From Eledone cirrhosa (Eukaryota): 64,000 bases of DNA. The DNA is taken from the NCBI GenBank assembly GCA_964016885.1, contig OZ024740.1, positions 63,674,001 to 63,738,000 on the forward strand, written 5' to 3'. The translations under genes and the position numbers were made by a program. The notes beneath the pieces were generated by a model. It was not told the DNA's origin and made no database searches. It saw only the letters and a program-made list of their open reading frames with translations. Below, piece by piece: positions 1 through 62,349 of the stretch; the stretch's first letter is position 1, and each line of letters opens with the position of its first letter.

Positions 1-544
1 TTAACCTAATATATTCCTTCCATATACTGTAACGATTGTGTTGTTATTTCTGTTTACCTGTTACATATATATATATATATTTATTTATTAAAATAACAGA
101 TTTTAGTCTTCAAATTTATTATTATTACTATATATATATATATATATATATATATAAGTATTGAAATTTCCGTTGGAAACAGAAAAGGTCATAGAAGTGA
201 AGAGTGCTCTATGTAAGTATCAGAGCAAAATTTAATGTATAAAAATCAATACAATATAATTACTTCATTACCAGAGGTTTCCCGAGTGAGGCGAATACGA
301 AAGAAACGTCTTCATTCGTTCGTCAGACGAGGCAATATAAAACATGGGTAAATACTGCCCCCTCGTTATCGAGTATGGCCATTGCTCGATATACCATTAT
401 TAATAATTATTAATTAATGCTATCGAGCAATGCCTGTGCGTGAAGATATTTTTTAAAGTGAGGAAAGACTGTGCACTGAGCCAATCCCAATCTCTGAGCG
501 ACAGTAGCTATAACCCGAAAAGAAGAAAAGATCAACATCATCGG

Positions 545-970
545 TAACTACTGAGCCGCAGGTTTTATATCGGAGTTATCCCAGTTTCCTGAGTTGCCTT
601 CTCCTAGAAGAATGCCCTGACAAAGGCTAGGGGTCCTTCACTCCCAGTGGTTTAACCACGCGATCGGGTGTCCAGCCCGACTATTTCTATGTCCCCTCGC
701 ATATACATACACATGCACCCATGTATATACACATATACATAAATATGTATATGTGTATATACATATTTGCACACTTTCGGATGGCCGTTGACTCTTGTGA
801 GTTTTTCCGCCCTTTGTCAGGTTTTGTTTTTTGTCCTACAGGGTAGCCAAAATCACCCTCCTCACCAAGTAAACTTGGTGGAGTTGCCGGTTTTGTCGCC
901 GACGACCCGACCATGCGATAGGTTGTACTGGGTTACATGTTACCAGTAGCACTCAAGAGTGACCCGACAT
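545..970 (-). mobile_element. Related copy of the RTE-like 5' UTR element
   Basis: Clear similarity to 56345-56631 (caccctcctcaccaag, gtcgccgacgacccgacc, gttaccagtagcac). Confidence 0.65.
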
Positions 971-1007
971 AATATATATATATATATATATATATATATA
1001 TATATAT

Positions 1008-1857
1008 ATTAGTAAAAGGAAAAGAAAATGGTGACAAATTTTTCCCAGTGAAAAATAGTTTAATTAGGAATAAGCATAAATTAGTAATAAGTATTGGTTA
1101 GTATTCAGTTTTAGTTTTAAGTTTTTACCGGTTGCGCATTTCTAATGCTTTTCAAAAATAATTTTAAGATAGAGCGCTCGTGATGTTTGATCTAATCTGA
1201 TCAGTTTTGGAAATTCTTCCTATCCCCCACACACGTACACACACATTCCTACTGACCGATTTATTCCCTCTACCACGAACCACTCTGCTACACACACACA
1301 CACACACACACACACACACACACACACACACACACACACACACACATATTTGTCTTAATAGACACCTGAACTGTTGACCTTTCAACATGACTGCAACTCA
1401 CACACACATCCCTACTGACCATTATCACGACAATTAACCTCTTTACTACACACACACACACATATTTGTCTTAATAGACATGTTTTTCAGTGACTTCTCA
1501 ACATGACTGCAACTCAATCAGACGAAAAAGGACACTCTTCGACAAACCTACATTTGGCCCCAAACCAGTTCGCGCTAAAATCAATTTTAACATTCACGTG
1601 ACCTCTACCGACCAACCAAATCTGAATACCTCTGGAGCCACTTTTCTCACATAAAACAGGAAGAATTTCCAAAACTGATCAGAGCGCTCTATCTCAAAAT
1701 TATTTTTGAAAAACATTAGAAATGCGCAACCGGTAAAAACTTAAAACTAAAACTGAATACTAACCAATACTTATTACTAATTTATACTTATTTCCTAATT
1801 AAACTATTTTTCACTGGGAAAAATTTGTCAGCATTTTCTTTTCCTTTTACTAATATA
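1008..1857. mobile_element. PLE-end-like element with ~175-bp terminal inverted repeats between (TA)n tracts
   Basis: About 1008-1179 is the reverse complement of about 1682-1857; further end copies at 5557-5625 and 39722-39910. Confidence 0.7.
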
Positions 1858-2689
1858 TCACAACTCGTGTGTTACACCTCTATTTTTATATATATATATA
1901 TATATATATATATATATATATATATGTGTGTGTGTGTGTGTGTGTGTGTGTGTGTGTGTGTGTATACTTACATATATATAAATATATGTTCGGAAAAGAT
2001 TATTTTTGTAAAAACAGGAGTAAGCAGGAGAAAGCGCTCAATAATCGTTGTTTTAGTTACGATGGAGAATTTTATAAAAGTAATAAAATAAGATGCTGAG
2101 GTTACATACATAAATAAATATATATATATATATATATATATATATATATATGTGTGTGTGTGAGTGTATGTGTGTATGTGTGTGTACCAATTGTGTTGTT
2201 AATTATGTTTACCTTTCGCATATATATATATATATGTGTGTGTGTGTGTGTGTGCGTCTACATATAAACAACATTGTGTGCAAAGTTTGAATTGTCGAAT
2301 CGTTGAGAGATGATGAGTTTCATAAAAAAATGTAGGTAAACTCAAACGCAGAAAAAATAGCGTAGAAAATCTTGTCACTTTTCCCTGTCTATAAGGGGTC
2401 TTTACGCGAGTGTTTAAGCTATTTATAGCAACTAGCTGTATTTACATTTTTTTTTGGGGGGGGGGGGGGGGGTCCTACATTTTCTATAAAACACATGATC
2501 TCTCGATGATTCGAAAGTTCAAACATTGCATACAATGTTGTTTACATTTTCAAAATTGTTTATCTTCTAATTTAGACGGAGATCGTTGTCAGGCGTCCTT
2601 TTGTGAGCAACATTTAGAGTAGTTAGTCAGTATCTTCATAGCCACTTTTTCCGTCTATAACAGGGTCTATGAAATATTTAGGGTTAACT

Positions 2690-3375
2690 GCCGATAGATT
2701 TAAGCAGCGTTTTTACATGCACTCTCATTCATTTCGAGCCCCTAAAAGAAGGATATGACTTCCTTTTCGGCCTATTTCTGGAGTTTAAAATACAATAACA
2801 TCCGATATAGGTTACACTGGGAGATCTTAGTTAAAGCTGATCCTATAACGAAAATAAAAGACCTTGTGATCTTTATGCCACTGAAGCTTTGGAAATCCTT
2901 TACGCCAAGAATGTATTTTAAACAAAAAACCCGATGCAATTTCATCTTATAAACATAAACTGTATAAAACATTTTTTGTATTACAGCCCAACATTATATC
3001 CTAACGGATAATATGGAGATTAGGCAGATGATATACGTCAGGATGTGATAGCTAAGAACAATCAAACTTTGCGTTGAATAGGTATGTGAGTGTGTGTGTG
3101 TGTGTGTGTGTGTGTGTGTGTGTGTATGTGTGTGTGTGTATGTGTGGGCGTGCGTATGTATATGTATATCAGAGGAATAACAACACAACCAGGAGCTGGA
3201 CATATCGATGTATTGACGGAGTAAAACACACTTCAACAACATGTGTACCTGTCTTTTCCACACCAATTTGGACTGCCTGAAGAGGTTACAGTCAATGATG
3301 GCTGTCACCGAAATATATATAGCAGTATATCTATAATTTATAATAAGCGAAGCCAAATTTTATATATTTGACTTA
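2690..3375 (+). mobile_element. PLE 3' remnant
   Basis: TSFSAYFWSLK...LHWEILVKA (GIY-YIG C-terminal region) followed by the HHR at 3272-3326. Confidence 0.65.
3272..3326 (+). ncRNA. Type I HHR with palindromic (AT) stem III
   Basis: ACTGC-CTGAAGA-GGTtACAGTC-aatgat-GGCTGTcACC-GAAATATATATA-GCAGT. Confidence 0.8.
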
Positions 3376-60000: not shown

Positions 60001-60477
60001 CTTCTCTTGTATTTATATATATATCTCCATACATCATAATCATCGTTTTTATGTCTGCTTTTACAGATGGGATGATTTTGTGCCAATATCCTACAGCTGG
60101 ATGCCCTTCCTGATGCCAACCTAATATATGAATATTCTTTTGCTGGTTTCAGCTGTTCGATTGCAGCCATGTAGCCAAAGAATTGGTTCATCATATCGAC
60201 CCCATTATTTCTTTTTCTGATGCTTATTTTACTGATCTATTAGTTGAACCAGTAAGTTATGGAATGAACAATAAACCACCACAGAAACAGAGTAACACAC
60301 ATACATATCATCATCACCACCACCATTTAACGTCCGTTTCTTCTGCTAGCAAGGGTTACATACATACACACATATATATATATATATCCAAAATTAAATT
60401 AAGGTAAGGTTGTCATGTCTGAGAGACATGCGCCATATTCACTGCAGAATAAGCTCAAAGAATAGTTCCGAGCATTT

Positions 60478-60815
60478 TATATCAACTAGAAATAGATTGA
60501 CACATATATATATATAAAATAAACACATGAAACAATCTCAGGGAATAACTGGTTGGATCTTCTCCTTTGGTGACCATCCAAGATTTGACTGCTGTGATTT
60601 ACGGATTAATTGGTGAAATATATTTCTTATTTAAAGAAATATATACAAAGGAGATGAATCATTTTAAAAGGTATCTACATTTGAAGTTCTAGTTAAACTT
60701 TAATTAATTACCTACCTAGCTATGTGTGTTAACACACTTTACAAATTATTCCCGGAGATTGTTTCATGTGTTTATTTTATATATATATGTGTCAATCTAT
60801 TTCTAGTTGATATAT
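60478..60815. mobile_element. MITE-like or foldback element with ~70-bp terminal inverted repeats
   Basis: 60478-60548 is the reverse complement of 60746-60815; TA-rich ends. Confidence 0.55.
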
Positions 60816-60816
60816 A

Positions 60817-61123
60817 TGGCTTAGTGGTTAGAGCATTGGCCTTGCAATCAAAAGGTTGTGAGTTCAATTCTCAGGCCGAGTGATGTGTTGTTTCCTTGAG
60901 CAAGACACTTTATTTCACATTGCTCCAGTTTACTCAGCTGTAGAAATGAGATGATAGGGACTGGGGTCCCTATCATTCCACTGCAAAAAAGCATCCAGCA
61001 CTCACTGTAAATGAGGTTGGTGTTAGGAAGGGCATCCAGCTGTAGAAATGAAGCCAGAATCAGTTCCCGTCCCACCCTTGCAAGCAGGGAAATGTGGACG
61101 TAAAATGAAATGATGATGATGAT
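60817..61123 (+). mobile_element. tRNA-derived SINE family B with CORE-like body and RTE-like (GAT)n tail. Copies at 51297-51632 (-) and 53298-53560 (+); related heads at 3615-3890 (+), 36510-36612 (+), 28575-28710 (-)
   Basis: TGGCTTAGTGG and GAGTTCAATTC boxes, ccttgagcaagacactttatttcac body, tail ggacgtaaaatgaaatgatgatgat. Confidence 0.75.
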
Positions 61124-62349
61124 ATATATATATATATATTTTTATATAATAAACAACACAATATAATTATTCTTTTACCAAAGGTTTCAGGAAACCAGAC
61201 GATCCTTACAGAAACGTCCATCGCGTTCATCAGATGATAAAAGACCGTCTAGTTTCCTGAAACCTTTGGTAATGGAATAATTATATTGTGTTTATTATGT
61301 AATTAAATAGCTCTGTACTATACATACACTATTCTTTCCTTTACGTTTTCTATGGAAATATTTAACGCACACACACACACATATCATTTTTTCATTTTAC
61401 GTCCGCTTTTCCCTGCTTGTATATATATATATATATATATATATACAAGCAAATTATATACGTAAACATGTATGTTTTTGAAACGGTGCGCGATTTTGAA
61501 ATTATAAATTATAAGCTTTCACCGCATTTTAGACTAAAGAAATGATAGTGGGGTTTATAACCCTCAGAGAAATGGAAAAAGATGAGTGTTGCCGTACTAT
61601 ATATATACATGAAACCAAAGCTATAATAGAACATGCCTAAAATGTCAGACTGAGTCCAAAAGCATGTGGTTGCAAAGCAAATTTCTTAACCACATAGCTA
61701 CGCCTACACCTACATATATATATATGTCCTTAAAGCAGAAGAACTGGAGATCTGTGTGTCATAATGGGATTAGGAACTTCAGTTGTATCCATATGCTACA
61801 AGAAGCAAGATGGAGGAGAAAAGCATTATCAAACATACCAGCGACATTATCCAGTAAACTCCCTCTTGCATGATCTGTGGACTTGCTTGCAAATCATTGA
61901 CAGGTCTAAAATATCATGCCTGACATAGATATCCAAATTGAATGAACTGAATAGGTTGTTTGGATCCTCATATGTTAAAATTGATGGGAGGGACCAGAAT
62001 ATATATGTATGCAAGGTCCTGTAACTTCTGAGGGAGTCGTAGGGATGCCATAGTGGCATACAGCATTTCTTGAGCATTTATAAGCCTGATGGAGCCCATC
62101 TCCTCTCTAAGTCTGAATACAGCAGATTTCTTCCAGAGAAGTGAAAAAGAGATATAGAGGAAGAATCAACCCCAGTACTAGACTAGAACTTTTTATATCG
62201 ACCTCGAAAAGATAAAAGGCAAAGTTGACCTTGGCGGGATTTGAACTCAGAGCGCTGGAACAAATACTGCAAAGTATTTGTTCGACTCCTCCAATTCACT
62301 GCCTCCATCATATATATATATATATATATATACATAAAATGGTGATAAT

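Follow-up and report, generated by a model that had tools for sequence, protein, structure and literature searches.

The window analysed here is a stretch of 64,000 nucleotides from Eledone cirrhosa (assembly GCA_964016885.1, contig OZ024740.1, positions 63,674,001 to 63,738,000). It is AT-rich, full of microsatellites and repeats, and contains many motifs with the layout of type I hammerhead ribozymes (HHRs). These lie among remnants of Penelope-like elements (PLEs), which encode a reverse transcriptase (RT) and a GIY-YIG endonuclease (EN), and of other retroelements (Table 1). Our analysis indicates that the motifs are very probably hammerhead folds at the 3' ends, the pseudo-long terminal repeats (pLTRs), of dozens of PLE families; they likely accumulate since every insertion in (TA)n, however 5'-truncated, would copy the HHR end.

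With a relaxed, scored descriptor, which tolerates one change in the core, an imperfect stem II base (bulge or mismatch) and a domain II of up to 130 nt, 27 motifs were found in the window at a score of at least 7. Fifty block-wise dinucleotide shuffles, with the microsatellites kept in place, gave a mean of 2.4 and a maximum of 8. At a score of at least 9 there were 24 motifs against a shuffle mean of 0.56, and at a score of at least 12 there were 10 against none. A homologue elsewhere in the genome was found for 25 of the 27 motifs; some of these alignments cover the 3' half alone. A search with motifs from other loci gave no homologue elsewhere in the genome for 13191-13285 and 20592-20664, which are unconfirmed. 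Homology and reading of the sequence add seven decayed copies and two fragments, for a total of about 34 motifs from 269 to 61271. A preliminary description of this DNA had claimed about 30 motifs over this span, more than ten families and a domain II of about 12 to 107 nt. These figures hold, with 18 families among the 27 scored motifs and a measured domain II of 12-107 nt, and the motif density relative to dinucleotide shuffles, which had been set beforehand as a test, is clearly in excess. Chance matches in AT-rich repetitive DNA, in whose favour stand the roughly 2 of 27 motifs expected to be false from the shuffles and the two motifs lacking a homologue, are ruled out for the set as a whole by this excess, by the repeated families, by covariation and by the constant position ahead of TA tracts.

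All 27 motifs have the type I order. Sixteen cores are canonical (CUGANGA...GAAA...UH), three have U3-A8, five U4A, two U4C and one another change. Recurrent core variants and long domains II had been said to escape strict searches, and this is the case. An Rfam covariance-model scan of the window gave no hammerhead among 137 matches at E<=1, the matches being microsatellite-driven microRNA models only. A strict descriptor recovers just 6 distinct motifs, and a textbook filter (R10.1-Y11.1 pair, short stem II) was passed by 2 of the 27 motifs and by 22 of the 249 found in a genome sample. This sample consists of 119 pieces of 10 kb, taken at even intervals from 23 large contigs (1.19 Mb of the 3.0-Gb assembly); small scaffolds lie outside it, and each inverted pair counts as two motifs. 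Most motifs fail at the canonical R10.1-Y11.1 base of a short stem II, and U.U, C.A and A.A bases and long domains are common. This failure lowers their claim to be called canonical, not the expectation that they work like hammerheads. A mir-8 match at 23669-23739 was rejected; it is below the gathering score and falls on the hairpin at the inversion between the two F0 motifs. Candidate motifs at 629, 56420, 44630, 60642 and 43143 were left uncounted because they had a single query or partial matches.

Table 1. Hammerhead motifs and PLE remnants in the window (HHR coordinates from core start to NUH).
Feature	Position	Strand	Evidence or remark
HHR F11, type I	269..326	-	descriptor, homology
Hydra-type GIY-YIG remnant, upstream of F2 HHR	2660..3008	+	tblastn
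HHR F2, canonical core, palindromic stem III	3277..3321	+	descriptor
Decayed F4-like HHR, ended by TA tract	5075..5108	+	homology
PLE open reading frame (ORF), 5'-truncated, Neptune-like: RT, CX4CxxC linker, GIY-YIG with CCHH	5784..7511	+	Pfam RVT_1, GIY-YIG; motifs from translation
HHR F91, U3-A8 core covariation, 3' of Neptune-like ORF	8665..8702	+	descriptor, homology
HHR F1, 12-nt domain II, U.U base; preceded by inverted tail arm 8938-9030	9049..9087	+	descriptor
Decayed F17-like HHR	10733..10766	+	homology
HHR F2	12597..12641	-	descriptor
F94 match without outside homologue; probably false or mis-parsed	13191..13285	-	descriptor
HHR F9, 105-nt domain II (-33.8 kcal/mol); Hydra-type EN remnant upstream 15954-16070	14626..14749	-	descriptor, tblastn
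HHR F10, 95-nt domain II	18443..18561	+	descriptor
Probable HHR F90, arm of inverted pair (~20380-20700); core parse uncertain	20592..20664	+	descriptor, sequence
Decayed F8-like HHR; Hydra-type EN remnant upstream 21352-21648	21106..21135	-	homology, tblastn
Decayed minimal HHR, F34-like	21760..21787	+	homology
Minimal HHR F34	22593..22620	-	descriptor
F35 HHRs, divergent inverted pair	22812..22940	22812-22867 -, 22885-22940 +	descriptor
HHR F18, 63-nt domain II	23259..23340	+	descriptor
F0 HHRs, divergent inverted pair	23604..23934	23604-23655 - (long tail 157), 23883-23934 + (short tail 51)	
HHR F9, 101-nt domain II	24118..24237	-	descriptor
Minimal F34-like HHR, palindromic stem III	26395..26422	-	homology
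HHR F25, long stem III; sole scored motif without TA tract <=1 kb downstream	29082..29145	-	descriptor
F3 (U4A) HHRs, divergent inverted pair	36913..37196	36913-36953 - (long tail 115), 37156-37196 + (short tail 25)	
HHR F92, U3-A8 core, 107-nt domain II	37928..38053	-	descriptor, homology
HHR F93, 81-nt domain II, 3' of Hydra-type RT remnant	38595..38694	-	descriptor, tblastn
Hydra-type PLE RT/thumb remnant	39025..39558	-	tblastn
HHR F3 (U4A)	40369..40409	+	descriptor
HHR F4	40957..40990	+	descriptor
HHR F14 (U4C core), inverted arm of element ending ~50190	41367..41405	-	descriptor, homology
Hydra-type PLE C-terminal remnant (CxCX5C linker, GIY-YIG)	41702..42873	+	translation, tblastn
HHR F14 (U4C), 3' end of element whose inverted arm is 41367..41405	50004..50042	+	LINE insertion between HHR and ORF
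HHR F3 (U4A) within recurring composite repeat	51227..51267	+	descriptor
HHR F3 (U4A) and own ORF remnant 52464-52675 (83-87% identity, longer of two pieces)	52334..52374	-	descriptor, tblastn
F35/F11-like HHRs, divergent inverted pair	61176..61271	61176-61233 -, 61231-61271 + (partial)	homology, sequence

The position of the motifs relative to TA tracts is not random. A (TA)>=5 tract occurs within 300 nt downstream of 24 of the 27 window motifs, against 0.30 at random positions; upstream the corresponding numbers are 8 of 27 and 0.28. In the genome sample, from which 47 of the 249 motifs near locus ends were excluded for this count, a tract lay within 100 nt downstream in 72 of 202 cases (background 0.09) and upstream in 22 of 202 (background 0.10). 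The association with (TA)n, which had been claimed for most motifs, is genuine and directed downstream. Coding remnants are less frequent than the preliminary description, in which many motifs lay downstream of GIY-YIG or RT remnants, would suggest. A PLE remnant on the same strand was detected by tblastn within 2.5 kb upstream of 8 of the 27 window motifs (background 0.135) and of 23 of the 249 sampled motifs (background 0.034); these counts are lower bounds, obtained with five query proteins from four natural copies. Six of the seven remnants that run into a window HHR are of the Hydra type. The seventh (5784-7511) is Neptune-like, having in translation a CX2-5CxxC linker and CCHH in the EN. 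The PLE traits of 5' truncation, an inverted 5' arm and an optional tail at one end were all present.

In line with the claim of PLE-end hammerheads, we found for the U4A family F3 a full-length parent whose RT/GIY-YIG ORF is flanked by an HHR on either side. This copy, L185 (C1:18,181,4xx-18,184,7xx), comprises an HHR, a 5' untranslated region (UTR), a 645-codon frame, a 1.1-kb UTR, an HHR and (TA)n, the two ribozymes being 3,259 bp apart. It has the layout of an EN-containing PLE, i.e. a single ORF with RT and C-terminal GIY-YIG, enclosed by partial-tandem pLTRs with HHRs. The protein contains RWR, DKT, YRDD and CxCX5C. L185 carries a stop late in the EN; in a sister copy the EN is complete, showing GIY-YIG-like strands together with CxxC and CxH but lacking CCHH. 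By these predicted motifs the parent carries the marks of the Hydra clade (RWK-like, DKT, CxCX5C, no CCHH, CxxC/CxH, (TA)n). Pfam gave no match for the L185 ORF, and the 912 homologues of its protein among 8,000 scored candidates are essentially without names.

The UTR of F3 contains a GT-AG intron of about 750 nt (L185:5830-6584), which ends 100 nt ahead of the HHR. It is precisely lost, at two acceptors 4 nt apart, in 279 copies, while 2,813 keep the donor, i.e. about 9% are spliced. This exact loss demonstrates an RNA intermediate. The upstream arm of the F3 pair at 36913..37196 in the window reads as the spliced form (37040-37060), as judged by comparing the junction with L185, and there is likely a second intron donor in L029. 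From the ORF start to the HHR end of the F3 element, depth in contigs of run X1, which is not a copy number, climbs about 40-fold. Contigs of runs X5 and X6, from two other organisms, contain pieces of the U4A element (L185:3600-6745) with about 95-99% identity and low depth; they may reflect relatives, contamination or transfer. An F3 end also occurs inside a recurring composite (window 50670-52290; L005, L010), which presumably has Helitron-like termini. Its 160 exact junction matches indicate that some HHRs spread as cargo; with these 160 alone, hitch-hiking was rejected as the cause of F3 abundance.

The 249 motifs of the genome sample compare with 35 in shuffles under the same descriptor. 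Extrapolation gives 0.54 million HHRs in the genome (95% bootstrap 0.42-0.65) at a score of at least 7 and 0.42 million (0.33-0.52) at a score of at least 10. The scale of this total is supported by genome-wide pattern matches for F3 (24,016), F0 (18,873) and F1 (9,400; exact 33-mer), each with a reversed control of 0. Twenty-eight families recur in at least two sampled loci, and the Chao1 estimate is 74-99 families. A tally of 34 families, which leaves out F22 and F24 as likely false clusters, includes 27 with a canonical core, four with U3-A8, two with U4C and one with U4A. The genome-wide radiation of many PLE-end HHR families that had been proposed is supported by these numbers. Domain II is longer than 30 nt in 123 of the 249 sampled motifs; its first and last bases are U.U in 9 of the 34 families and G-C in 8 (a one-base 5' bulge uncounted). 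The palindromic stem III put forward as a dimer trait is found in part: 16 of the 34 families have perfect palindromes, whereas the others have long stems III and could fold as monomers.

The motif density of the window is about twice the genome mean and falls in the top 1-5% of pseudo-windows. This could point to a host-selected regulatory system at the locus, but such a system is hardly credible. Pseudo-windows built from independent 10-kb pieces understate clustering, the motifs come from dispersed families on both strands with several decayed, and the 10-kb pieces flanking the window hold 8 and 0 motifs. The earlier reading as a single system or special locus also fails, given a density just twice the mean. 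Neighbours on the same strand nearly always belong to different families and are separated by TA, which means that the clusters are stacks of separate insertions. One element carrying two different HHRs as a heterodimer was rejected, since the neighbours differ pair by pair.

Many families end at two distances past the predicted cut, about 25-65 and 90-250 nt; the values are 38-61 or 131-158 nt for F0, 26-30 or 89-94 nt for F1, and 60-66 or 197-207 nt for F9. Lying 20-250 nt from the 3' end, the HHR is retained in nearly every truncated copy. The sample lists 28 divergent pairs, of which two are uninformative and one repeats another. Among the 25 informative pairs, the two tails differ (one long, one short) in 19 and are equal in six. 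Bimodal tails and asymmetric inverted pairs fit the two internal RT start sites and two-strand priming demonstrated for the Anolis element (PMC11167929). In F1 inverted pairs genome-wide, many junctions lie about 5-50 nt from the core start, clustered far more tightly than in other families.

The copies do not begin at the predicted cleavage site. The pLTR-ORF junction of F3 occurs 730 times genome-wide. Of 30 loci examined, one being the reference itself, 17 span the predicted cut, 13 start downstream of it at +7 to +106, and none starts within 3 nt. Copies that run through the cut, with none starting there, indicate that the template was uncleaved or circular. Uncleaved tandem RNA is favoured because tandem arrays are rare here and unprocessed RNA is dominant in Anolis (PMC11167929). 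A circle would be expected if the motifs were mainly retrozymes, that is, cleaved and ligated small circles copied by rolling-circle reverse transcription. The read-through of the cut fits this, and retrozyme-like tandem arrays occur at L189:7376-9501, L189:3404-6535 and L186:1914-2634. They include, in L189, identical HHR units (7 x 310 bp) that begin at an inversion, as well as 6 x ~490-bp units, each with a TA tract. The F1 matches are also strand-skewed (5,697 vs 3,703), as arrays would give. However, same-family tandem neighbours number five among the 249 sampled motifs, and tandem HHR units, the mark of retrozymes, are absent from the window. In addition, 5' ends are ragged, arms are inverted and several copies run into PLE coding sequence. 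We therefore consider a mainly retrozyme origin improbable; the label 'retrozyme-like' of the preliminary description fits few motifs, although arrays exist in L189. The 310-bp array was grouped with F1 by its motif but is a separate family.

Covariation within families had also been named as a test, and it is present in stem II of F0, the one family examined for it; stems of the other families were assigned by complementarity. Thirty F0 loci picked without a stem II requirement gave 23 distinct domains II. Both-sided changes occur at four pairs: pair 2 (A-U 13, G-C 8), pair 3 (G-C 12, A-U 8), pair 6 (U-A 12, C-G 7) and pair 9 (C-G 11, U-A 9). A C.C mismatch is retained, and a larger set of 71 sequences agrees. 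Stem III of F0 varies among different palindromes. Of the seven domain II hairpins over 50 nt, six have predicted energies of -17 to -34 kcal/mol and the unconfirmed 77-nt one -10. From the sequences, the folds appear to be under selection in master lineages. Between the arms of the F0 pair in the window, 23708-23906 is a 65-nt x 3.1 tandem of the F0 5' half-core without the GAAA half, which places three alternative 5' halves ahead of one 3' half.

Two families have a fixed or nearly fixed change at core position 4. F3 has A in 15,362 copies and any other base in 137; the latter are scattered G, C and T changes, and a canonical U4 subfamily was rejected. In F14, C is present in 90 of 100 among the matches listed (450 in all). 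These changes bear on the possibility that the hammerhead, at least in the U4A family, has been freed from cleaving and that its fold is kept as an RT binding or positioning signal near the initiation sites. Such a role would agree with the fixation of A4, with the 91-98% likeness of long F3 copies, with their U.U stem II base and NUU triplet, and with the lack of 5' ends at the predicted cut. U4C is said to lower activity considerably in vitro (PMC3088659), and insertion of the Anolis element in vitro was unaffected by catalytic HHR mutants (PMC11167929). On the other hand, the remaining core letters of F3 (C3, G5, A6, G8, A9, GAAA, U16.1) are kept in 11 of 11 scored copies, albeit the descriptor demands them once A4 is allowed. 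Moreover, 31 of the 34 families have a canonical or U3-A8 core, and a viroid U4C variant retains enough activity in vivo (PMC3088659). We regard a purely structural role as rather unlikely.

We return to the reading that the motifs are type I hammerheads, by predicted fold, at the ends of PLEs; most lack the canonical stem II geometry, and they are not retrozymes. Following the biochemistry of the Anolis PLE, the GIY-YIG domain would nick AT-rich DNA and the RT would begin within the RNA, at either of two positions 3' of the HHR. Priming on both strands would yield the divergent inverted pairs (cf. PMC11167929). The stacking of different families in the same TA tracts, which is itself observed, creates the local density. 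The copied RNA was uncleaved or re-ligated, the former being preferred. The ribozyme of the master copies may be kept by selection, as the compensatory changes in stem II, the palindromic stems III and U3-A8 suggest, and it would likely cleave tandem transcripts slowly, as a dimer or with an element protein. Most genomic copies are probably inert remnants.

Several points weigh against this reading. Most families are tied to PLEs by layout and not by a parent, because just 8 window and 23 sampled motifs show a coding remnant, and some families may be non-autonomous. The six inverted pairs with equal tails point to duplication at the DNA level. A circular template would predict read-through of the cut just as well, and the pooled 5'-end test (21 families, 1,764 hits, 278 spanning the cut, 6 within 3 nt, no pile-up) is affected by self-hits and by considerable microsatellite noise. 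For 12 of the 27 window motifs the hammerhead fold comes within 2 kcal/mol of the predicted minimum, and for 15 it lies more than 2 kcal/mol above it. Finally, the F0 covariation counts come from related subfamilies; because the sequences are related, neither covariation nor family tallies represent independent events.

Elements of this kind, with this targeting and layout, have been described before (Cervera 2014; Craig 2021; Frangieh 2024). The minimal HHRs of Cervera and De la Pena 2014 (PMC4209133) resemble ours in their type I layout and pLTR position, in palindromic stem III and U3-A8, and in falling into many heterogeneous families. As here, most of them are lone, truncated copies, and pairs on opposite strands are 100-700 bp apart. 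They number about 2,000-9,000 per genome, against the roughly 0.4-0.55 million estimated here, and their G10.1-C11.1 is conserved, whereas this pair begins and ends domain II in 8 of our 34 families. In the part of that paper available, no mention of fixed U4A and U4C families was found; pLTR introns of PLEs were known (PMC4209133, PMC6765202). The Hydra clade (Craig et al. 2021, PMC8557442) shares RWK-like, DKT, the CxCX5C linker without CCHH, CxxC and CxH around E and N, canonical HHRs and (TA)n insertion. It is described there as few families, <3 kb in length, from cnidarians and some further aquatic invertebrates. The Hydra-type elements here, placed by motifs and not by a tree, are numerous and very high-copy, with a 3.26-kb unit and a 750-nt pLTR intron. 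Lunse et al. (RNA Biol 14:1499) reportedly cover some 150,000 variants together with tests of core changes.

Poseidon PAc of Anolis (Frangieh et al. 2024, PMC11167929) has in common with our families two genomic end points (the tail) and AT-rich targets, and its template is unprocessed RNA. Its tails are 30-40 nt, compared with about 50-170 nt here, and its ORF starts inside the HHR, whereas that of F3 begins about 157 nt past the predicted cut. Non-LTR retrozymes (PMC7229834; Li et al. 2026 preprint) share the type I HHR, and tandem arrays of about 310-490 bp occur in this genome, although the motifs of the window do not form tandem arrays. Families here and axolotl HHR_Amex2 have U.U at the helix II base in common. 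The axolotl has 126,247 motifs (Cervera 2020, PMC7229834) in two families, against 28 recurring and 74-99 estimated here. In the literature on hammerheads, PLEs and cephalopods, as far as it was available, we found no cephalopod survey of PLE HHRs, no U4A family, no comparable load and no Hydra-type radiation; Lunse et al. and the supplements of Craig 2021 (S1-S2) and Cervera 2014 may hold examples. The words 'ribozyme' and 'hammerhead' are absent from the available part of the O. vulgaris repeat paper (PMC13282606).

Three things seem new here: the load estimated for the genome, the radiation of Hydra-type elements and a family in which U4A is fixed. A wider interpretation is tentative, and we hold it to be possible but doubtful. 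It states that the largest hammerhead load reported in the literature surveyed (about 1 per 6 kb) arose from a Hydra-clade radiation whose ribozymes left the canonical consensus (fixed U4A/U4C, mismatched stem II base, 60-110-nt domain II) because an element protein chaperones or completes the fold. If this were true, the genome would offer a natural collection of hammerheads that work with the help of a protein and a setting in which to test the purpose of PLE ribozymes, and any active intronic copies would cut host pre-mRNAs genome-wide. The role of hammerheads in PLEs has been called unclear (PMC8557442) and cleavage was found dispensable in vitro (PMC11167929). The young, very abundant autonomous A4 family beside dozens of canonical-core families offers a matched natural contrast. 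Standard annotation undercounts such motifs, with none from Rfam in the window and 235 hammerhead loci listed in the giant squid paper (PMC6962438).

The window also contains other repeats. A near-full-length long interspersed element (LINE; 43857-49198, minus strand) has a zinc-knuckle ORF1 and an endonuclease-RT ORF2 according to Pfam, and we take it to be L1/Tx1-like. It sits in the 3' UTR of a Hydra-type PLE and parts the PLE ORF from its HHR. Another RT element is present in three fragments (30986-34325 and 35200-36480, minus; 54700-55800, plus) and ends in (CATA)n tracts. The fragments carry a Cys/His cluster and a PD..D-like C-terminus, while Pfam finds RVT_1 alone; the element is presumably a LINE with a restriction-like endonuclease. 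A dispersed repeat at 400-970 and 56050-56630, whose copies stop at TA or (CATA)n tracts, lacks a convincing hammerhead. A 48-bp x 12.5 tandem lies in a SINE-like repeat (short interspersed element) at 58076-58667, and a single unit of it occurs also at 51410-51470 and 53380-53430.

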